Source: Oculatellaceae cyanobacterium bins.114 (GTDB lineage: Bacteria; Cyanobacteriota; Cyanobacteriia; Elainellales; Elainellaceae). Taken from it: a stretch of DNA of 16,151 bases. The DNA lies in NCBI GenBank assembly GCA_033764315.1, contig JANRJA010000223.1, positions 1 through 16,151 of the forward strand, in the 5' to 3' direction. The translations under genes and the position numbers were made by a program. The notes under the pieces were generated by a model. That model saw only the letters and a program-made list of their open reading frames with translations, was not told the origin of the DNA and made no database searches. Positions within the stretch are counted from its first letter, which is position 1. Every line of letters begins with the position of its first letter. Of this stretch, positions 4,886-14,957 are shown one piece after another.

Positions 4886-6697
4886 CTACACATTGTTCAA
4901 GGCATCCGTTACCCACTGTTTCAGTGTAGATACTACCTCTTCCAGAGCAATCTCTTGCGACTCGTGGTTGGCGCGTTTCACCACTTCAACTTTGCCCTGC
5001 TGGAGCGATCGCCCCGTCACCACGCGATAGGGAATGCCCACCAGATCGGCATCTTTGAATTTCACCCCAGCCCGTTCGTCGCGATCGTCTAACAGAGTTT
5101 CAATGCCAGCTTGATTTAACTCAGTGTAGAGTTTTTCAGCCGCCGCGACTTGTGCTGCATCGCTGACATTAGGAATCACCACAATCGCATGATAGGGGGC
5201 GATCGCCGGATGCCAGACAATACCGTCTTTATCATAGGATTGCTCTACGGCGGATTGGGCTAACCGGGAAACACCCACGCCATAACAGCCCATCACTAGG
5301 GGTTTCTCTTCGCCTTGTTCGTTGGTGAAGGTAGCTCCTAATGCAGCGGAATATTTAGTACCCAATTGGAAGATGTGACCGACTTCAATGCCTCGTGCGC
5401 TTTGTAGTACCTGGTTAGGGTCGTGGATGGCGCGATCGCCCGGTCTGGCTTTACGGACATCTACCACATCAGCGGGCAGAGGATATTGCGTGCCCCAGTT
5501 GGCTCCAACGACGTGATAGCCCGATTCATTCGACCCGGTGACGAAGTTTTTTAAGTCAACGGCGGTTTTATCGACTAGCCGTAAGAACTTGGGATGCAAT
5601 TTGTCTTGCTTGCTAATATAGTCATCCTCTAAACCAGGAGAGATATAGCCCAACGGCAAAGGTTTGGTTGCCCATTTTGCTTGCGCTTCGGCATCGGGTA
5701 CGGTCAGAGCTAACAAAGTTTTGCCACCAAAACGATTGCCTGCCTTGACGAGTTCGTTCGTGAGTTTGACCTCGTTGACATCTTGATCGCCGCGAATGTT
5801 GACCAACACCAACACATTCACGCCATTGTCATAAGTGGCTTGATACAACACGTTCTTGACAATTTGGGTGGGCAAACACTTGAGAAACTTCGCCAGCGTA
5901 TCAATCGTGGGTGTATTGGGAGTATCGAGCTTCTCAAACGTTGTAAAGGAGGAGGGTTCTGCATCGAGTGGCAGGGACACCGCTTTTTCAGTATTGGCAG
6001 AATAGTTGCCATCTTTGGTGTAGAGCACTTCGTCTTCACCAGCGTCTGCTAACACCATAAACTCCTGAGAGCCAGAGCCACCGATCGCCCCAGAGTCAGC
6101 TTCAACAGGCAAAAACCGCAAACCACAACGGGTAAACATGCGGCGATAGGCTCGATCCATATAGGCATAGGTTTCTTTTAAGCTAGCTTCGTTGACATGA
6201 AACGAATAGCCATCTTTCATGATGAACTCGCGCCCCCGCATTAACCCAAACCGCGATCGAATCTCATCGCGAAACTTCGTTTGGATTTGGTAGAGGTGCA
6301 ATGGCAATTGACGATAGGAACGAACCATGTCACGGGCGATCGCCGTGATTACTTCTTCGTGGGTTGGCCCCAAGCTCATCTCACGCTGTTGGCGATCGAC
6401 CAGCGCAAACATAATGCCTTCGGCTTTTGTGTAGGTGTCCCATCGGCCTGACTCTTTCCACAGTTCCGAGGGTTGCAGAGCAGGCAACAAGACTTCTTGA
6501 GCACCCGTGGCGTTCATCTCCTCGCGTACAATCTGCGAGACTTTTTGCAACACGCGCCACATCAGCGGCAGGTAGGCATACACTCCACTGGCAATACGCC
6601 GAATATAGCCCGCTCGCAACAACAGCTTGTGGCTGGGAATCTCAGCCTCCACTGGGTCTTCTCGCAGTGTCACAAACAGCATTTGGGACAATCGCAT
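4886..6697 (-). CDS. proS: Proline--tRNA ligase (bacterial type with INS editing domain)
   Basis: 'MRLSQM...[16 protein letters not shown]', '[10 protein letters not shown]', '[26 protein letters not shown]', '[15 protein letters not shown]', 'MGCYG.GVSR', anticodon-binding '[21 protein letters not shown]'. Confidence 0.99.
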
Positions 6698-7000: not shown

Positions 7001-8704
7001 ATGATGACAGACCAATTTCCTTGGCTGACTACGATTGTTCTACTGCCGCTTCTTGCTTCCCTGTTTATTCCGTTGCTGCCCAATAAGACTGGCAAAGTTG
7101 TGCGGTGGTATGCCCTTGCCGTAGGCATCGCAGACTTCGTTTTAATGTGCTACACATTTTGGATGCATTACGACATGAGTAGTGCAACGTTCCAGTTGGT
7201 AGAACAGGTGGCTTGGATGCCGCAGATAGGCATGAGTTGGACAGTCTCGGTGGATGGTATTTCGGCTCCATTAGTATTATTGGCTGGGCTGGTCACAACG
7301 CTTTCCATGTTGGCTGCGTGGCGGGTCGATCGCAGACCTCGCTTGTTCTTTGCCTTAATGCTGGTGCTCTATGCTGCCCAGATCGGAGTCTTCGTGGCTC
7401 AAGACTTGCTGTTGTTCTTCATCATGTGGGAGATCGAGCTAGTTCCGGTTTATCTGCTCGTGTCTATTTGGGGTGGACAAAATCGTCGCTATGCGGCTAC
7501 TAAATTCTTGATGTATACTGCCGCTGCTTCTATCTTCATTTTGATCGCGGCACTGGCAATGGCTTTCTATGGAGATGTAACGACCTTTGATATTGCAGCA
7601 CTCCAGTTGAAGAACTTTCCTCTCGTCCTTGAACTGCTTCTCTATGCTGGTTTACTGGTTGCATTTGGGGTCAAGCTAGCGATCTTCCCCTTCCACACCT
7701 GGTTGCCAGATGCCCACGGTGAAGCATCCTCTCCTGTGTCGATGATATTGGCAGGGGTGTTATTGAAAATGGGCGGTTATGGGCTGATTCGTCTCAACAT
7801 GGAATTGTTGCCCCATGCTCATGTTTACTTTGCTCCAATCTTGGCAATTTTGGGTGTGGTGAACATCGTCTACGGTGCACTCAATTCTTTTGCCCAGACT
7901 AATATGAAGCGTCGCCTCGCGTATTCGTCGATCTCACACATGGGCTTTGTCCTGTTAGGGCTTGCCTCCTACAGTGATATCGGGGTTAGCGGTGCGATGT
8001 TGCAAATGCTGTCGCACGGTCTGATTGCATCCGTTCTGTTCTTCTTGGCTGGTGTAACCTACGATCGCACCCATACAATGATGATGAATCAAATGGGTGG
8101 AATCGGTCAGGCATTGCCCAAAGTGTTTGCACTGTTTACGATCGCCGCGATGGCATCTCTGGCATTGCCGGGTATGAGTGGGTTTGCCAGTGAAATCTCG
8201 GTCTTTGTGGGTCTAACGACCACCGATGTCTACAGTTCCACCTTCCGCACGGTCACCATCTTCTTGTCAGCAGTAGGGCTAATTATCACACCGATCTATC
8301 TGCTTTCGATGCTGAGAGAAGTGTTTTATGGATCGGGTGCAGAGTTGGTCTGTGATGTTATGCCGTCTTGTGACCTAAACGATGCGGATTTGAAAAATCA
8401 AGGGAATGAGGAAGCCGCTTGCTTTGGCACGAATTGTGAACTGCCTGTGAATGCCAAATTTGAAGATGCAACTCCGCGTGAAGTGTTTATCGCCGCTTGT
8501 TTTCTGGGGTTAATCATCGCGATCGGGTTTTATCCTAAGCTGGCAACGCAGATGTATGATTCCACTACTGTTGCGCTCAATAGCCAAGTGCGGTCATCTT
8601 ACTTTCAAGTGGCAGAGAGCAATCCTCAAATCTATGCCTGGAGCTTTGGCAAATCAACTCTCGCGGAGTCAAAGCCTTCTCCAGTTTTAGGGATTGTTGA
8701 ATAG
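7001..8704 (+). CDS. ndhD2: NAD(P)H-quinone oxidoreductase (NDH-1) subunit 4, NdhD2-type
   Basis: '[10 protein letters not shown]', '[15 protein letters not shown]', '[19 protein letters not shown]', '[11 protein letters not shown]', '[15 protein letters not shown]'. The Cys-containing insert '[12 protein letters not shown]' and tail 'VRSSY.Q.AE.NP..YA' match my recollection of the NdhD2 paralogue. Confidence 0.93.
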
Positions 8705-9199: not shown

Positions 9200-9775
9200 T
9201 TATAGAAATATCTGAGCTATTGAGACGCTGAATCCTGGAAGCAAAGGGGATGTGAGACTATCCTCACTGAAGAGAGTTGCAGCCAGTTGCAATTGAGCAT
9301 CAGCACGACGATAAACCTCTAGCGATCGCAGTTGCCAGTTGACAATCCAGTATTCTTGAACTCCATGCAGGGAATACAGTTTGAGTTTGACTTCCTTATC
9401 TCGCTGTTCGTTTAGTTCTCCAGGTGAGAGCACTTCAACCATCAACTCAGGAGCAACGATCAGGTGTCCTAATTCGTCAATGCCGTTGGTCAACCTTTCT
9501 CGGCTAACCCAAACGACATCTGGGATCACTGCATCGGTAGGGGTAAAAATTACGCCCGGAGATTGGAAAGCACTTCCTGCACCACTCATTTCTGACCAAA
9601 TTTCTAGACGAACGTGCAGTTTACCTGCTGCGCCTTGATGGCGAATGTGGGGAGCACGAGTCACAAACAACTCTCCATCAATAATTTCATAGCGTTTCCA
9701 ACCGCCATCGTCAGGCATCGCATCGAGATCACGAGTTGTCCATCGAATCGATTTGGAAACCATAGGATTGATCAT
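9200..9775 (-). CDS. Uma2 family (DUF820) PD-(D/E)xK endonuclease-like protein
   Basis: 'RYEIIDGEL', 'PHIRHQ', 'VIPDVVW', 'APELMVEVLSP', 'KLKLY..HGVQEYWIV', 'SPLLPGF'. Start is uncertain (9763, 9775 or 9805). Confidence 0.93.
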   Translation of the reverse strand: MINPMVSKSIRWTTRDLDAMPDDGGWKRYEIIDGELFVTRAPHIRHQGAAGKLHVRLEIWSEMSGAGSAFQSPGVIFTPTDAVIPDVVWVSRERLTNGIDELGHLIVAPELMVEVLSPGELNEQRDKEVKLKLYSLHGVQEYWIVNWQLRSLEVYRRADAQLQLAATLFSEDSLTSPLLPGFSVSIAQIFL

Positions 9776-10136
9776 TGAACCTGTTTTTAGTGTAAGCGAT
9801 CGCATTGGATCACGATGGCCCTGGTTAGTTCTACAATTGGCTGAGACGGAGCCGAGTTTAGAAGTAGAACGATGTGATGTTTAGCGGTAAGTCTCCTGAA
9901 GAATGAAGAACAATGCGCCTCACGGGAGAGCTATCACATCAAAGGTTCTGATCAGAAGATAGTGTTTGGAAACCAAAGTATTCAATTCTTTGTAAAAATC
10001 AGTTTTAGTTACATAATTCATTCTGTCATTAATAAATGAAACACAAAGTTTTACTCTTTAAACCAAATGATCGCTTCAAACTTCTGCAATTTCAGTCTAA
10101 TCTGTATTAAAACGATATTTGTCTTAGTACAGATGA

Positions 10137-10604
10137 ATGATTATGAGAGATAGGAATATTATTGACCTCAATCGAGAGTATTTAATCAAGCAGAGCGAAA
10201 TGTTGCAAGCCATTATTAGCCGTATGGCGAGCAACTCATTAAGCATTAAACAATTAGCAATAACAATTTGGACAACACTAATAAGTTTTGGTTTTACTAA
10301 TAAAGCAAAATTTCTATTTCTATTGGCAATTCTTTCATTGATACTCTTAATTTTTTTGGATGGATATTATTTATACCTAGAGAAACGTTTCCGAAGTAGT
10401 TTCAACCAGCTTAGTAATATACTTTGTAACTTTAGTGAAAGGGCTTTAGAGGAGTTTGAATCTGTTGAAGGAAATTTTATTTCATTGAATCGAATTAGCA
10501 GAAAACAAATTTTGCAATTGTATACAAAATCTCTAGCTTCCCTCGCAAATATCCCTTACTTAGCAGCCTTAATAATTACGTTATCAATTCTATTAGCAAC
10601 ATAA
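10137..10604 (+). CDS. Small membrane protein (~3 TM segments), candidate effector of the neighbouring TIR locus
   Basis: 'EMLQAIISRMASNSLSIKQLAITIW' helix-TM, 'FLFLLAILSLILLIFLDGYYLYLEKRFR', and a C-terminal hydrophobic helix 'IPYLAALIITLSILLAT'. The effector role is inference. Confidence 0.8.
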   Translation: MIMRDRNIIDLNREYLIKQSEMLQAIISRMASNSLSIKQLAITIWTTLISFGFTNKAKFLFLLAILSLILLIFLDGYYLYLEKRFRSSFNQLSNILCNFSERALEEFESVEGNFISLNRISRKQILQLYTKSLASLANIPYLAALIITLSILLAT

Positions 10605-10607
10605 TTT

Positions 10608-12773
10608 TTATGCAGAGTACCTTTTGATAGTCTCCGACAAAGCTTTTAGAGGATCTGGATTACGGTTATTCAAATCAACCCACCCATATCCTTGTAAATT
10701 CGGTGGAACTAACGGACGCTCTCCTCTGGAACGAAGAATTACAGGAATGATAGGATAATTTTTGTTCAGTCTGCTTTGTGTAGAAATATCTTTCCTTATA
10801 AATGCGTCTATTTCTCTTCTTTGCCAAGGACCAATATTGTTCTTACTAATAAAAACAACTGCTGTTCTAAAAATATCACTCTCAATGAATTCTTCCAATC
10901 TTTGCTGCCAAACTTCTCCAGGTTGCAGTTCATTAACATCCATCCAAACTGCAACACCTTGTTGATATAGCTGTTCTGCGATCTTTTCTACTCTTTTTTT
11001 ATCTTTTCTGTTATATGAAAGAAAAGCCCCAAACTTAAAACAGATGAGTCTCTGATTATACTTTTCCTGAATTTTACTTCGGCGACTTTGACCAAGATTA
11101 CTCACTTTCTCGAATAGTTCATCCAGGTCTTTATATGGCACTTTACTAAGAATGTCATTTATGATTCCAGGACCAATATAAGTATCACTAAAGATACGAA
11201 CTAGTTCCTCATATTTTGCTGTATTGATATCGAGGGAAGATTGCTCTAAGACTTTAGTACTTTCGGCTTCAGTTTCGTGATTTTCTTCTGGGACAATCTT
11301 AAATTCCAAGGGATTAACCCATTGAATTTGGTTGAGTTTTAACTTCTCCTGAAGTAATGGGGAACAATCAGGAGCAATGATAAAAGCTATGTTATTTGCT
11401 TGACCTGACGAATTCATTCCTTGTGGTTCAACTAACTCTAGCCGTTTGGTGAACTCGTCTGCGTATCTGCTTAAAATCTCATAGTTTCTAGCTCCTCCAT
11501 ATGCACTTGCAACACAGTGACCATTTTTAAAGAGTTTTGCATAGCAATTAAAAGTGTGATCTTTTGCTCTTAAAGATTCAAACTTTATCTCATAATTATT
11601 ACTATCCCGTATATATACACGCCACACCTGCTCGCATATTTCTTTAATTAATGTTGAAAGCTCATTAGGGGTTCCTTCAAAAAAACGTTCTGATTTATCC
11701 TCAAAATATCTACCATATATCTCACGTACTATACCAGCATAATCTCTACAAAAATCACTAAGGAACTTTTTGCTATCAGGGTTGTCAAGCCTTATACTCT
11801 CAATTTCTCTATATGCTTCTTCAAACCGATCATATGTTCCATAAGCTCCCCTGATACGCTGATTAATTTTATTTTTAATTCCTTCAAATTCATTTTTATG
11901 ACCTGCCACTAAATTGACTACTGATTGAGAAACGCGTCTCTCTAGAGCTCTGTCTGATCCAATAAATTTTTTTACAATTTCTGATGTTCCAGCTAAATAC
12001 ATCATTAATCGAATTTCATCTTTATACTCTCGATATATATCATTCAATAAGCTTTTAAATATAGATTTAAGCTGTCCATGTTCATCCCCCTTTAGAGCAT
12101 CATCTAATTCATCAACTAAATAAACAAAAGTGTATTCAGATCTCATCTCTGATATCAAGCTGATGATATGAAAAAGAACTTCCTGAGGTTGATAATTAGA
12201 ACTAATATCTGCGAAAGATCTATTAAATCTTGGTTGAAAAACCATCTCGAATCTCTCTGCATCTATTAGGATTTGAGCCCCATCATTTCCAAATAATTCC
12301 TTCAAAACAGAAGTGGCTACACCTCGAATATCAGAAATACACAACATTTTCCAAAGAGTTTCAGCTAAAATCTTGGAATAGAATTTAATTCCAAAGCTTT
12401 GGCTGTTACTTACAGAAAGTAGTTTTGAAAGATCAAAATAAACAACAATAGCTTTTTTAGAATATCTTGGACTTACTCTGATTAGTTCTTGTAAATAATG
12501 TAAAAGAGAAGTTTTACCACTACCTGCAACGGCAGCAATAAATCTAAACGTAAAAATACCTTTATTAAAACAGTAGTTTAAGTCATCAACTAATAAACCT
12601 TCTAAAGTAGAAATACTTTGTCTAGATAGGCTATTGGCAGTTGTAAACTCAGAACCCGTTCCTTGTGATTGTACAGTTCGATCGACCCAAATATCTGGAA
12701 TAAAATCTTTACCTCCACTAACATCTCTAAGAAAACCTTCTATGAATTGGCTGTTTTCTGGTATCTCATTCAT
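10608..12773 (-). CDS. P-loop (AAA+-like) ATPase - REase-fold-like segment - ComEA-type helix-hairpin-helix - TIR domain fusion protein
   Basis: Walker A AVAGSGKTS (~12510-12536), Walker B FVYLVDELD (12102-12128), 'MYLAGT' and 'ALERRV'. HhH 'LDINTAKYEEL...IGPG...PYKDLDEL..KV.NLG' (~11060-11234). TIR 'FLSYNRKDK...GVAVWMD..ELQPG..W...WQRRE...IIPVIL...P.L....WVDL' (~10611-11033). ATG at 12773 lies 2 nt after the upstream stop; the ORF track extends to 12788. Confidence 0.88.
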   Translation of the reverse strand: MNEIPENSQFIEGFLRDVSGGKDFIPDIWVDRTVQSQGTGSEFTTANSLSRQSISTLEGLLVDDLNYCFNKGIFTFRFIAAVAGSGKTSLLHYLQELIRVSPRYSKKAIVVYFDLSKLLSVSNSQSFGIKFYSKILAETLWKMLCISDIRGVATSVLKELFGNDGAQILIDAERFEMVFQPRFNRSFADISSNYQPQEVLFHIISLISEMRSEYTFVYLVDELDDALKGDEHGQLKSIFKSLLNDIYREYKDEIRLMMYLAGTSEIVKKFIGSDRALERRVSQSVVNLVAGHKNEFEGIKNKINQRIRGAYGTYDRFEEAYREIESIRLDNPDSKKFLSDFCRDYAGIVREIYGRYFEDKSERFFEGTPNELSTLIKEICEQVWRVYIRDSNNYEIKFESLRAKDHTFNCYAKLFKNGHCVASAYGGARNYEILSRYADEFTKRLELVEPQGMNSSGQANNIAFIIAPDCSPLLQEKLKLNQIQWVNPLEFKIVPEENHETEAESTKVLEQSSLDINTAKYEELVRIFSDTYIGPGIINDILSKVPYKDLDELFEKVSNLGQSRRSKIQEKYNQRLICFKFGAFLSYNRKDKKRVEKIAEQLYQQGVAVWMDVNELQPGEVWQQRLEEFIESDIFRTAVVFISKNNIGPWQRREIDAFIRKDISTQSRLNKNYPIIPVILRSRGERPLVPPNLQGYGWVDLNNRNPDPLKALSETIKRYSA

Positions 12774-12775
12774 GC

Positions 12776-13384
12776 TTAATCCACCCAATGAATTAAATCG
12801 TCTTCTTCTCCTTTTGATATAGATATTTTCTCAAGAGATTTCAATTTATTAAAATACTCTTCCCATGTTTCACGGTTTACATTTAGTCCTTTATCTTGTT
12901 GAAATAAGCGGTAAATATCCTGTTTAGAGATTGCGACAACGCCTTTGATTTCCTGACGTTTTTTCTCTTCAAAATATAATTCCTTGAAATTCTTGGAAAA
13001 CTCTTCAAAGTCTATTTCGTAAAAACGAAATTCTGATTGACCTGCCTTGTTAAAACAATTCAAGACGCCGTTTAAAACTTTAAATACCTTCTTTTTGTCT
13101 GACTCAAATCTATAGTTTGTAGCTGACAAGCCTGATATTAGAGAATCAATACCATTACTTGTAATCAAAATCTGGCTGTTTCTACCAGCTTCAATTAATT
13201 CCTTCTTCAGCAGAGATGTGTATGCAGATTCAATCTTTTTCTCAGGCAAACCTTTGTTATCGCGCAATAGTGCCTTCTTTACAGTGCCTTTAGTAGCTGT
13301 CCCTTTTGTTGATTTTCCTTCTTCTCTTAGATGAGAAAAAGTATAAAGCAGGTAGAGTAATTCTTCATTTGAAAGATCAAACAT
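12776..13384 (-). CDS. Hypothetical 202-aa Lys-rich protein, probable tandem winged-helix domains
   Basis: AGGAG Shine-Dalgarno 5 nt before the ATG (13390-13394). N-terminal 'IESAYTSLLKKELIE....ILITSNGIDSL' is a wHTH wing/ITxxG pattern. C-terminal 'ISKQDIYRLF...VNRETWEEYFNKL....KISISKG' is a second wHTH-like pattern. Confidence 0.75.
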   Translation of the reverse strand: MFDLSNEELLYLLYTFSHLREEGKSTKGTATKGTVKKALLRDNKGLPEKKIESAYTSLLKKELIEAGRNSQILITSNGIDSLISGLSATNYRFESDKKKVFKVLNGVLNCFNKAGQSEFRFYEIDFEEFSKNFKELYFEEKKRQEIKGVVAISKQDIYRLFQQDKGLNVNRETWEEYFNKLKSLEKISISKGEEDDLIHWVD

Positions 13385-13600: not shown

Positions 13601-13632
13601 TGTCAGTGTGTGATCATAATCACACACTGACA
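13601..13632. promoter_or_regulatory. Perfect 14-bp inverted repeat containing a consensus CRP-type box TGTGA-N6-TCACA
   Basis: tgtcagtgtgtgat-cata-atcacacactgaca, with TGTGA(tcataa)TCACA at 13609-13624. It lies upstream of the wHTH-ATPase-TIR operon. Confidence 0.6.
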
Positions 13633-14103: not shown

Positions 14104-14475
14104 ATGTTACCCATCTCAAGCGAACAAATGGCAGCCTATCGTGCCTCGGCACTCAAGCGATATCAAGACCAACAAGAGCACCTGCGCGATCGCCATCAGC
14201 TTGGTTTAGCTGTGGCGAGACAAGCGGCTGATCTATTGAAGCAAAACTTTAAGGCTAGAAAAGTCGTTTTGTTTGGCTCGATGCTGTCATTTGACTTAAT
14301 TCATGAACGCTCTGATGTAGATCTAGCCGTTTGGGGTCTAGCTCCGCAAGATTACTATCGAGCGGTAGGGTGTCTTCTGGCTTTACAACCTGGAATCTTG
14401 ATCGATTTAGTGGAAGTAGAATCGGCTCCTACTCGTTTGTTGACGGAAATTGAAGCATCAGGACTAGTGCTGTGA
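14104..14475 (+). CDS. Minimal nucleotidyltransferase (MNT/MntA-like antitoxin)
   Basis: 'VVLFGS-x10-DVDLAV' (GSx10DxD) and 'IDLV'. Stop overlaps the next start (GTGA). Confidence 0.92.
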   Translation: MLPISSEQMAAYRASALKRYQDQQEHLRDRHQLGLAVARQAADLLKQNFKARKVVLFGSMLSFDLIHERSDVDLAVWGLAPQDYYRAVGCLLALQPGILIDLVEVESAPTRLLTEIEASGLVL

Positions 14476-14957
14476 AACCCAATGTGCTGGTTTTGGCAGT
14501 TCGGATTCGAGCAGAGTTAAGCGAGATTCATCAAGTAGTGGAACGTGCTCAACGCTTATTAGCTAAAGCGATCGCATCAAATGATGCAGATTATTATGAT
14601 GGAATTGCCCTAAATCTGCACAGTTTTTACACCGCCATTGAGCGAATTTTAGAAGATATTGCCAGAGAAATTGATGGTGCTATTCCCACAGGACAAAATT
14701 CGCATCGCGACTTGCTAATTCAAATGTCTGCTGAAATTCCGAATAGTCGTCCCCCTGTCATTCAACGCCAATCCCGTTACTGCTTAGATGAGTATCGAGG
14801 TTTACGGCATGTCATCCGAAATGTTTACACCTTCAATCTAAAGCCAGAAAGATTGCAAGAACTGGTCACTGCCCTACCAGATTGTTATCAATTTCTAGTC
14901 CACGATCTAACCGACTTTTGCCAATTTTTAGAAGCACTAACAGAATCTGACTGTTAA
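14472..14957 (+). CDS. HEPN domain (HepT-like) ribonuclease toxin
   Basis: 'ALNLHSFYTAIERILE.IA..ID...P.G..SHRDLL.QM', 'LDEYRGLRHVIRNVY'. Translationally coupled to the MNT gene. Confidence 0.88.
   Translation: MKPNVLVLAVRIRAELSEIHQVVERAQRLLAKAIASNDADYYDGIALNLHSFYTAIERILEDIAREIDGAIPTGQNSHRDLLIQMSAEIPNSRPPVIQRQSRYCLDEYRGLRHVIRNVYTFNLKPERLQELVTALPDCYQFLVHDLTDFCQFLEALTESDC

Follow-up and report, generated by a model that had tools for sequence, protein, structure and literature searches.

What could trigger a bacterial TIR protein in which every module upstream of the TIR domain belongs to a type that handles DNA? NTPase-TIR immune proteins are known, and what triggers them is in most cases a phage protein recognized by repeat domains; the immune repertoire of cyanobacteria has been little tested. 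In the window (i.e., the whole 16,151-nt stretch of cyanobacterial DNA analyzed here), one gene, hereafter gene B, combines a TIR domain with an initiator-type AAA+ module, a dead nuclease-like domain, and a ComEA-like helix-hairpin-helix (HhH), and the gene next to it (gene A) encodes a probable winged-helix partner. A TIR domain with only DNA-handling modules upstream would be a candidate for a bacterial TIR that DNA activates directly. Our analyses indicate that genes A and B are a candidate immune gene pair, probably rare and undescribed, that probably exchanged its effector.

Gene B encodes a five-part protein

The features of the locus are as follows:

10608 to 12773, minus strand: gene B, 721 aa plus stop codon (open reading frame and translation)
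12606 to 12773, minus strand: gene B N-terminal extension, residues 1 to 56, conserved family-wide
11700 to 12605, minus strand: gene B ORC/Cdc6-type AAA+ ATPase with lid, residues 57 to 358
11304 to 11681, minus strand: gene B middle alpha/beta domain, residues 365 to 490 (AlphaFold2 [AF2] model, residue counts)
11049 to 11234, minus strand: gene B ComEA-like double HhH, residues 514 to 575 (relatives, family profile, model)
10611 to 11039, minus strand: gene B TIR domain, residues 579 to 721 (TIR_2 match)
12776 to 13384, minus strand: gene A, 202 aa, probable winged-helix protein, directly upstream of gene B
13601 to 13632, no strand assigned: perfect 14-nt inverted repeat with a 4-nt loop, approximately 220 nt upstream of gene A

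The first-pass annotation of this DNA read gene B as an ATPase followed by a ComEA-type HhH fused directly to a C-terminal TIR domain. The open reading frame is real, and every motif quoted in that annotation is found in the translation where it had been placed; the ATG start gives the 721-aa product, while an alternative TTG start would prolong the frame to 12788. The identities of the P-loop ATPase, the ComEA-like HhH, and the C-terminal TIR domain with its glutamate all stand. The order of the domains holds only in part. The HhH is indeed joined directly to the TIR domain (TIR-less relatives stop at "...ICF," directly before the first TIR strand), but the ATPase does not adjoin the HhH: the AF2 model places an alpha/beta domain of approximately 125 aa (residues 365 to 490) and a disordered linker (residues 491 to 512) between them. 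The three-part reading missed the middle domain and, with it, the family context. These two carry the main result of this study, which is the gain of a TIR domain together with the loss of an E-x-K motif.

The model on which this layout rests has a mean pLDDT of 89.8 and a pTM of 0.74; an earlier model, built from seven sequences, had a pLDDT of 58, and a Foldseek search with it returned the TIR domain only. Full-length relatives of gene B share 42 to 44% identity with it. The N-terminal extension (consensus MPEDAGKK..FL..G..DIWIER) has the same mean pairwise identity (i.e., 0.55) in the TIR-bearing and TIR-less groups and could be placed in no family.

The architecture had been described as unusual. 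It is rare (five clusters at 50% identity and one fragment among 1.84 billion representatives), but a TIR domain located C terminal to an NTPase is not unusual per se, given that the nearest TIR relatives include an NB-ARC-then-TIR protein (P0045) and that C-terminal TIR domains are frequent among the matches. Two other proteins (P0140 and P0152) equal gene B in length and TIR position, yet they are unrelated to it across the N-terminal 580 residues and were rejected as relatives. TPR and WD40 repeats are absent from the gene B protein, as the first-pass annotation had noted. One family relative (P0021) carries fused WD40 repeats.

An ATPase of the ORC/Cdc6 clade

The Walker A motif (AVAGSGKT, residues 81 to 88, 12510 to 12533) and the Walker B motif (residues 217 to 224, 12102 to 12125, with VDELD at 220 to 224) are well preserved in the family. 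The lysine of the A-x-x-G-x-G-K-T pattern (K87) is found in all 45 rows covering the position, and the acidic pair of Walker B is present in 46 of 46 rows (D221) and 44 of 46 rows (E222). The AAA+ base and lid have a fold nearest to that of initiator-clade members, and the gene B ATPase is an ORC/Cdc6-clade AAA+ module of the DNA-loading ORC/Cdc6/TnsC type rather than a member of the McrB clade. A C-terminal winged helix following the lid is absent; the alignments to ORC/Cdc6 chains end at approximately residues 358 to 362, where the alpha/beta domain comes next. Pfam models of related ATPases stay below their cutoffs for the window protein. The ORC-CDC6-like model matches 2 of 28 members below its cutoff (best E value, 0.041), BrxC_BrxD gives 11.9 bits for the gene B protein (cutoff, 22.2 bits) and reaches 23.1 bits only over a partial stretch of one relative (P0030), and NACHT matches gene B at an E value of 0.19 and 10 of 28 members at E values of ≤1 (best, 0.0013), all under the cutoff.

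The putative arginine finger of the first-pass annotation, ALERR, occupies residues 276 to 280, and R280 is located where a box VII arginine finger is expected. This residue is held as arginine in 11 of 12 TIR-bearing forms but in only 9 of 34 TIR-less forms. Since leucine replaces it in 21 of the 34 TIR-less forms, the ATPase cycle may be atypical.

A diverged HhH precedes a TIR domain with a catalytic-type glutamate

The ComEA/HHH_3 assignment had been made for positions 11060 to 11234, where the pattern LDINTAKYEEL..IGPG..PYKDLDEL spans residues 514 to 556. The window sequence itself does not carry the assignment: neither the 721-aa protein nor its first 582 residues gave a match to an HHH family at an E value of ≤1. 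The HhH is assigned to gene B because of three other observations. Its relatives match HHH_3 (15 of 28 members at E values of ≤1), with relative P0023 reaching 42.7 bits in the homologous columns (cutoff, 27 bits); the top PDB match of the family profile is ComEA (8dss; E value, 0.024); and four helices are modeled at residues 521 to 527, 535 to 543, 550 to 556, and 562 to 573 with a pLDDT of approximately 95. The fold-search lists contained no match centered on this part among the matches listed.

The C-terminal domain has a flavodoxin-like TIR fold and matches Pfam TIR_2 at residues 584 to 708 (76.3 bits; cutoff, 28 bits; E value, 3.6e-21). Its candidate catalytic glutamate, E654, lies in WQRRE (codon at 10812 to 10814), as the first-pass annotation had proposed. 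W650-x-x-x-E654 aligns with the W-x-x-x-E of AbTir (7uwg/8g83) and Cat1 (9mud), the glutamate of which we take to be the catalytic residue in these proteins, and E654 is kept in 13 of 13 TIR-bearing forms.

TIR gain coincides with loss of a nuclease-like signature

In most family members, the protein stops just past the HhH, and there is no TIR domain. In these TIR-less relatives, the middle domain carries the signature E366, D409, and E427-x-K429. Of the TIR-less rows covering these positions, 38 of 39 have E427 and K429 and 37 of 38 have D409; in the 13 TIR rows, E427 and K429 never occur, and D409 occurs once. All 13 TIR-bearing members are without E-x-K, and the two characters are anticorrelated across the family. 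In gene B, the domain is degenerate (N409, K413, G427, and R429), and the catalytic residues of D...(D/E)-x-K are not found in it. Nevertheless, the TIR clade keeps this domain under constraint: its mean pairwise identity there is 0.50, whereas the AAA+ part has 0.52 and the linker 0.18.

The TIR-bearing forms cluster in the family tree, and one or two gains are needed to explain their distribution. A branch with an SH-aLRT value of 96 separates them from the remaining members. When the middle-domain columns were left out, 11 of 12 TIR forms fell into a clade with support of 100/100, while the 12th row separated from them; a single TIR clade was not rejected (AU test, P = 0.41).

The AF2 model of the middle domain consists of a helix, three strands, a helix, a strand, a helix, and a strand (pLDDT, approximately 77 to 96). 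The order of its elements (helix 369 to 390, strands 394 to 398, 409 to 416, and 419 to 428, helix 435 to 448, and strand 462 to 466) fits an alpha-beta-beta-beta-alpha-beta core. We infer that the middle domain of the TIR-less forms is a PD-(D/E)xK-like nuclease effector under the control of ATP, both its fold and its activity being putative.

It is unlikely, in our estimation, that the middle domain was never a nuclease and that its E/D/E-x-K residues bind a ligand, a metal, or a partner, such that the TIR-less cassette acts by another route (e.g., via gene A or some host component), the TIR domain is the first genuine effector, and coadaptation explains the changed motif. In favor of this alternative, none of the comparisons linked the domain significantly to a PD-(D/E)xK family, in sequence or in structure. 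Searches by hmmsearch in both directions gave nothing (E values, >0.6). An hhalign comparison with 16 cyanobacterial Mrr_cat domains aligned D with D and EAK with QAK but did not reach significance (P = 0.18). Pfam PDDEXK_5 matched 2 of 14 members when E values of up to 10 were accepted (best, 0.053). The middle-domain profile retrieved its own family only, plus one match at an E value of 0.044, from 61 related genomes, and the family profile found no PDB match for this part. In a VIA-wide fold search with the good and the poor full-length models, the lists were filled by matches to AAA+ and TIR, or to TIR alone, and none of the matches listed fell on the middle domain; Foldseek against viral models returned generic AAA+ and TIR matches only. 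Against the alternative, the spacing of the E/D/E-x-K residues and their placement on strands are those of PD-(D/E)xK enzymes, and the near-perfect partition of E-x-K between TIR-less and TIR-bearing rows and the lack of any other effector in TIR-less forms if the nuclease is denied point the same way. In the space of ESM features, moreover, the ten listed Pfam-bearing clusters nearest to the middle domain are all PD-(D/E)xK, with scores of 0.75 to 0.79 that fall under the 0.9 bar and are a lead only; the order of elements in the model and the PDDEXK_5 matches are further leads toward a nuclease-like domain.

Genes A and B form a rare cassette

Only 2 nt separate the stop codon of gene A from the gene B start codon (ATG). 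This spacing is 2 to 3 nt across loci, and gene B is translationally coupled to gene A. The order is kept in 17 of 19 genome loci, whereas the flanking genes differ. Gene A is probably a winged-helix protein: its structural look-alikes are winged helix-turn-helix families (TM scores below 0.5), and Pfam Mrr_N matches it weakly (10 of 16 members; best E value, 5e-4). The inverted repeat upstream of gene A may act as an operator or as a terminator; a promoter and terminator scan of the window yielded nothing above shuffled sequences.

This two-gene cassette is rare and has so far been seen almost exclusively in cyanobacteria. It was found at 19 genome loci; of 301 genomes sampled from the phylum, 6 carry the family, and decaying copies exist (one split, L010, and one truncated, L019). 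A tblastn search of plasmids with gene B gave TIR-only matches in three records, and phages gave no match. In the window, the G+C content is 32 to 38% at approximately 9.5 to 14 kb and 44 to 51% elsewhere. Other genes in this low-G+C island encode Uma2, a PDC-M50A-like membrane protein, and an MNT/HepT pair; tRNA genes are absent from the window. Elsewhere, the neighbors of the cassette are mostly housekeeping genes, and by our reading approximately 6 of 16 flank-scanned loci have a toxin-antitoxin, restriction-modification, or other conflict-type neighbor, so the defense-island argument is modest. A domain of Pfam NA-iREase1 (NACHT-associated inactive restriction endonuclease 1) was seen on a neighbor gene of locus L011. 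The distribution and setting are compatible with a defense system.

Neither PADLOC nor NCBIfam has a defense model for gene A or for the core of gene B. With PADLOC-DB v2, gene A had no match, and all gene B matches at E values of <1e-3 lay in the TIR region; a ThsB match (E value, 0.0054) covered the TIR part only, and NCBIfam ThcB4 gave 14.7 bits (cutoff, 220 bits). Because the core has no Pfam, NCBIfam, or PADLOC model, the pair is a candidate new cyanobacterial defense system. No description of the architecture or of the pair was found in the literature consulted, including PMC8195603, bioRxiv 10.64898/2026.10.19.760177, and PMC13581612, whose supplementary tables may list the family under another name; PMC7159879 contains no occurrence of HhH, iREase, ORC, or Cdc6.

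A DNA-sensing module that may have exchanged its effector

We see an even chance that genes A and B constitute a DNA-sensing ATPase module with a role in defense, the effector of which was switched from a nuclease to a TIR NADase. In such a module, the winged helix of gene A, the HhH, and the inactive nuclease-like domain would bind foreign or aberrant DNA, with the gene A protein presumably contacting that of gene B. ATP-bound AAA+ modules would form oligomers on the bound DNA, as ORC/Cdc6/TnsC-type ATPases do, and oligomerization would bring the TIR domains together into an active NADase assembly. The resulting NAD+ depletion would lead to arrest or death of the infected cell (i.e., abortive infection). 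In the TIR-less form, the middle domain would itself be the effector, as an ATP-controlled nuclease; in the clade of the window protein, E-x-K is lost and a TIR domain with a catalytic-type glutamate is joined to the former C terminus. The first-pass annotation had proposed a DNA-activated TIR nucleated by the HhH. Such activation is supported indirectly by the DNA-loading-type ATPase, the winged-helix-like partner, and the nuclease-like signature of the presumed TIR-less ancestors.

The most detailed form of this proposal is somewhat less probable than the general one, and we hold it tentatively. It describes an undescribed, cyanobacterium-centered immune system in which the ORC/Cdc6-like ATPase would load on invader DNA, the disabled nuclease would be retained as a DNA sensor beside the HhH, and the TIR NADase would have been added at the old C terminus. 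If true, a DNA-cutting, restriction-like system was turned into DNA-triggered, NAD-depleting abortive infection, and the exchange of effectors has been caught in midevolution. The family offers a natural paired comparison, with one sensor chassis occurring in two versions, one with the nuclease-like motif intact and one with a TIR domain, and the idea of modular effector swapping is directly testable with a few point mutants.

Two other readings of the TIR domain fare worse than the doubts about the nuclease. It is quite improbable that the domain acts as a signal generator in the manner of Thoeris ThsB, producing on DNA sensing an ADPR-derived nucleotide that activates a separate effector, possibly the convergent 2-TM protein encoded at 10137 to 10604. 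That protein has no relative beside gene B in any of 19 other loci, a TIR-bearing locus (L001) has housekeeping neighbors, and the scanned window open reading frames include no SIR2, Macro, or SLOG-type ThsA-like gene; the low ThcB4 score given above also counts against it. Least probable of all is a nonimmune DNA metabolism or regulatory module (e.g., an initiator-like loader, a factor for DNA uptake or repair, or an addiction module) in which the TIR domain would serve as a protein-protein adaptor, a reading that agrees with the housekeeping roles of ORC/Cdc6-type ATPases and ComEA HhH domains and with the predominance of housekeeping flanking genes elsewhere but is at odds with the sparse distribution among different neighbors at each locus, the decaying copies, the location of the window copy in a low-G+C patch beside other conflict-type genes, and the strict conservation of the TIR glutamate.

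Comparison with known systems

No known family or defense system matches the A-B pair. Among ORC/Cdc6-clade ATPases (i.e., archaeal Cdc6/Orc1, ORC4, TnsC, BrxC, and RdrA), gene B is set apart by the missing winged helix after the lid and by its subcutoff Pfam scores. It falls under the BrxC_BrxD cutoff of BREX BrxC/BrxD, and the scanned window open reading frames contain no PglZ/PglX partners or other BREX genes, nor any RADAR or transposon partner genes. Compared with Thoeris, gene B scores below the ThsB-type model, and no ThsA-type partner was found among the same open reading frames.

ATP- or GTP-dependent restriction modules (e.g., McrBC and the Mrr-type enzymes that have an Mrr_N winged helix) are built from an NTPase and a PD-(D/E)xK nuclease. 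The TIR-less members resemble them in that an AAA+ NTPase is found together with an E...D...E-x-K signature and with modules for DNA binding, and gene A has its weak similarity to Mrr_N. The family differs from them in having no significant Mrr_cat or nuclease similarity and an ATPase of the ORC/Cdc6 rather than the McrB clade, and the window protein is without the nuclease signature. With ComEA/HHH_3, the family shares the INTA...G-h-G...L pattern, and the model has four helices there; in contrast to ComEA, the HhH of gene B is too diverged for a Pfam match and is placed inside a cytoplasmic ATPase rather than in a membrane-anchored DNA uptake protein. The NA-iREase1 model matched the gene B protein in none of our scans, and the likeness is by analogy only, the shared concept being an inactivated REase domain retained in an NTPase-based conflict protein. 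Finally, gene B differs from STAND/NLR-type TIR proteins (i.e., bacterial Avs, NACHT-type proteins, and plant TNLs) in that it does not reach the NACHT/NB-ARC models and has no repeat sensor, but has instead a nuclease-like domain and an HhH, a small partner gene, and a C-terminal TIR domain; what it shares with them is the logic of an NTPase switch coupled to a TIR death or signaling domain.

Domain architecture of the ATPase-TIR protein

Gene B lies in an open reading frame spanning positions 10608 to 12788 of the window (minus strand), in which an ATG at 12773 gives a protein of 721 residues. The motifs quoted in the first-pass annotation were all found in its translation.

Residues 81 to 88: AVAGSGKT
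Residues 220 to 224: VDELD
Residues 276 to 280: ALERR
Residues 514 to 556: LDINTAKYEEL...IGPG...PYKDLDEL
Glu654 (codon at window 10812 to 10814): WQRRE

TIR_2 (residues 584 to 708; E = 3.6e-21; 76.3 bits versus a cut-off of 28) was the sole Pfam family to pass its cut-off; P-loop families were weak (AAA_22, E = 0.009; NACHT, E = 0.19), and no HhH family was found in Pfam at E ≤ 1. PADLOC matches at E < 1e-3 were all confined to the TIR region, and NCBIfam returned only Thoeris ThcB4, below threshold (14.7 bits versus 220).

With only 7 input sequences, AlphaFold modelled protein B poorly (pLDDT 58); the model from the 77-row family alignment (A3) reached a mean pLDDT of 89.8 (pTM 0.74), with the following parts.

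Residues 1 to 56: N-terminal extension
Residues 57 to 358: AAA+ base and lid
Residues 365 to 490: alpha/beta domain (middle domain)
Residues 491 to 512: low-confidence linker
Residues 521 to 573: four helices, after the linker
Residues 579 to 721: TIR

The modelled elements of the middle domain are H369-390, E394-398, E409-416, E419-428, H435-448, E462-466, H472-480, and E484-486. Thus, the motifs and TIR domain of the first-pass annotation stand, but the ATPase that it had followed with the HhH is separated from it by an alpha/beta domain in the model.

Comparison of the model with 48,161 PDB representatives (VIA-align) gave matches in two sets, and Foldseek agreed while adding matches to 2qen and RdrA 8hr8. 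These matches place the ATPase in the ORC/Cdc6 (initiator/STAND-related) clade; it lacks the winged-helix domain usual after the lid. Neither the middle domain nor the HhH was covered by any row in the structure-match lists. The candidate arginine finger R280 (window 11934 to 11936) is Arg in 11 of 12 TIR forms in A3, whereas of the 34 TIR-less forms (most of which end after the HhH) 21 carry Leu and only 9 Arg, suggesting that the ATPase cycle may differ between the two forms.

The ComEA-type HhH read from the sequence in the first pass is upheld by relatives, the family profile, and the modelled helices, and not by a direct Pfam match of B, whose own copy is too diverged for one. HHH_3 scored 42.7 bits (cut-off, 27) in the relative P0023, in columns aligned to the HhH of B, and was found at E ≤ 1 in 15 of 28 family members. 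In PDB, the family profile matched ComEA best (8dss; E = 0.024), with the alignment running across the INTA...G-x-G...L region. We accept a ComEA-like (HhH)2 in B by homology and modelling.

A motif swap in the middle domain

No part of the TIR-less members is better conserved than the middle domain (mean pairwise identity, 0.57 versus 0.43 for the AAA+ region). Its first helix bears F-E-G-x-A-R, its second strand H-x-F-D-C-Y-x-E-L, and its third strand F-G-E-A-K-N-Y, giving the E...D...E-x-K arrangement of PD-(D/E)xK nucleases. These residues are distributed as follows.

Middle-domain residues in the 59 family rows of A3, each column using only the rows that cover it
E427 and K429: TIR-less, 38/39; TIR-bearing, 0/13 (G or S, and R or Q)
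D409: TIR-less, 37/38; TIR-bearing, 1/13 (P0012)
E413: TIR-less, 35/38; TIR-bearing, 0/13

The lone TIR-less exception at E427/K429 is P0037, a 257-aa fragment with a middle domain like that of the TIR clade; since its sequence stops about ten residues past the HhH, its TIR-less label is not assured. D, E, and K are also retained in L039 (620 aa), a TIR-less member that came to light later. No form has lost Walker A K87 or Walker B D221, and all 13 TIR forms retain the TIR glutamate. Within the TIR clade, mean pairwise identity is 0.50 for the middle domain, 0.52 for the ATPase, and 0.18 for the linker; because the middle domain is as conserved as the ATPase, it is retained under constraint despite loss of the signature. 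The window copy is a TIR-armed, nuclease-motif-dead variant of its family.

The nuclease assignment is weak by itself. Against it, searches by hmmsearch between the middle domain and nuclease families found no match in either direction, the middle-domain profile, run over 61 related genomes, picked up only family members, and the listed structure matches left this domain uncovered. In its favor are the residue pattern, the order of secondary-structure elements, and PDDEXK_5 matches in 2 of 14 members (E at least 0.053). An hhalign alignment to 16 cyanobacterial Mrr_cat domains speaks for it by setting D opposite D and EAK opposite QAK and against it by its P of 0.18. Also in its favor, the ESM-feature neighbors of residues 365 to 492 of the relative P0018 scored 0.75 to 0.79, below the 0.9 bar; among the matches listed, all named clusters with a family were PD-(D/E)xK (i.e., Mrr_cat, Mrr_cat_2, PDDEXK_3, NERD, MunI, and DUF234).

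The trees covered 39 of the 59 rows, with rows of fewer than 480 (quick tree) or 400 (careful tree) core residues dropped. A quick IQ-TREE analysis (LG+C20; residues 1 to 578) placed the 12 TIR forms on one side of a branch (SH-aLRT, 96), nested among TIR-less forms under midpoint rooting. In a careful LG+G4 tree without columns 361 to 439, 11 of the 12 formed a 100/100 clade with the 12th apart, so that TIR needs two changes (only one in 18% of bootstrap trees); an AU test did not reject a single TIR clade (p = 0.41). Together, these trees, which have no established root, suggest that TIR was gained once or possibly twice.

Distribution of the family and its partner gene

A word-index search with B found five full-length relatives (42 to 44% identity), all TIR-bearing, and one 573-aa relative ending past the HhH. 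An exhaustive profile search gave 12,150 matches at E ≤ 1e-3, nearly all by TIR alone; core-family matches were few, with the TIR-bearing ones comprising 5 clusters at 50% identity and the fragment P0032, and the TIR-less ones a dozen or so clusters (about 557 to 658 aa). In P0021 (816 aa), WD40 repeats are fused in place of the HhH, and D/E/K are kept. Separate WD40-repeat genes also occur next to B: one begins 15 nt past it (L011:5445-6383), and another adjoins it convergently (L039:2569-3270).

When each of 185,579 species was represented by a single genome, scanning yielded 19 loci, cyanobacterial except for one MAG titled only "bacterium." Of 301 genomes sampled from the phylum, 6 matched the family profile, among them the window's own genome, which holds one copy of B. 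The core of B had no match in plasmid or phage collections.

A homologue (about 190 aa) of gene A, which occupies window 12776 to 13384, lies directly upstream of B in 17 of the 19 loci, with 2 to 3 nt between the A stop and B start. The loci named as exceptions are L010 (6001-8125; a decaying B split into two overlapping ORFs) and L019 (6004-7128; a decaying B truncated at its 5' end), both with no upstream A, and L016, where the contig opens within a truncated B or immediately ahead of it and thus does not reach the upstream region. Flanking genes vary by locus and are mostly housekeeping; among 16 loci with scanned flanks, we count about 6 with conflict-type neighbors (toxin-antitoxin, methylase, or other). 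No family passed threshold for protein A, a probable winged helix: 10 of the 16 members searched gave weak matches to Mrr_N (winged helix; best E = 5e-4), and the Atlas structure look-alikes of A are winged-helix regulators (TM below 0.5). One of the three feature clusters nearest to A (score, 0.90; 78 members) is reported as mostly Planctomycetota, and the A family may thus extend outside cyanobacteria. A-B is a rare, apparently undescribed two-gene family; no description was found in the comparative-genomics literature searched.

Genomic setting

The G+C content of the window is 0.32 to 0.38 across about 9.5 to 14 kb and 0.44 to 0.51 elsewhere. The left flank, covering the first two genes listed here, is housekeeping.

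4886 to 6697: prolyl-tRNA synthetase
7001 to 8704: NDH/Mrp subunit
9200 to 9805, minus strand: Uma2 nuclease-fold gene (E = 2.5e-34; PADLOC PDC-S03), in the low-G+C stretch
10137 to 10604, plus strand: 155-aa protein with two predicted membrane helices (PADLOC candidate PDC-M50A, E = 6e-19), in the low-G+C stretch
14104 to 14957, plus strand: overlapping MNT/HepT-type nucleotidyltransferase-HEPN pair (Polbeta, E = 7.7e-9; HepT-like_2, E = 2.1e-31), after the low-G+C stretch

The low-G+C stretch also contains genes B and A, and the Uma2 gene and MNT/HepT pair bracket this cassette at the edges of the stretch; the stretch and the pair form a small island of conflict-type genes. The 155-aa protein is convergent with gene B (stops 3 nt apart) and has no Pfam or NCBIfam family; none of the other 19 loci has a relative of it next to B, and the proteins scanned did not include a PDC-M50B partner. 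A perfect 14-nt inverted repeat with a 4-nt spacer (TGTCAGTGTGTGAT / ATCACACACTGACA; window 13601 to 13632), about 220 nt upstream of A, is a candidate terminator or, for the winged-helix partner, a candidate operator.

Proposed mechanism and comparison with known systems

The best-supported reading of A-B is an ATPase module that senses DNA and whose effectors can be exchanged. Elsewhere, ATPases of the ORC/Cdc6/TnsC type form assemblies on DNA, DNA binding by ComEA HhH domains shows no sequence preference, and TIR NADases are activated by induced proximity. By analogy with this behavior, B, driven by ATP and guided by A, would oligomerize on DNA and cluster its TIR domains, which would then consume NAD+. 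We give this mechanism about an even chance of being correct, and the interpretation offered in the first pass is partly supported.

A-B is not Thoeris, as no ThsA was found among the window ORFs scanned. B is not a NACHT or NB-ARC member by any model. Its motor resembles those of BrxC, TnsC, and ORC, but it lacks their winged-helix domain, and their partners were not found among the window ORFs scanned. In the reading of A-B as a DNA-sensing module, B would share its working principle with NLR-type TIR proteins.
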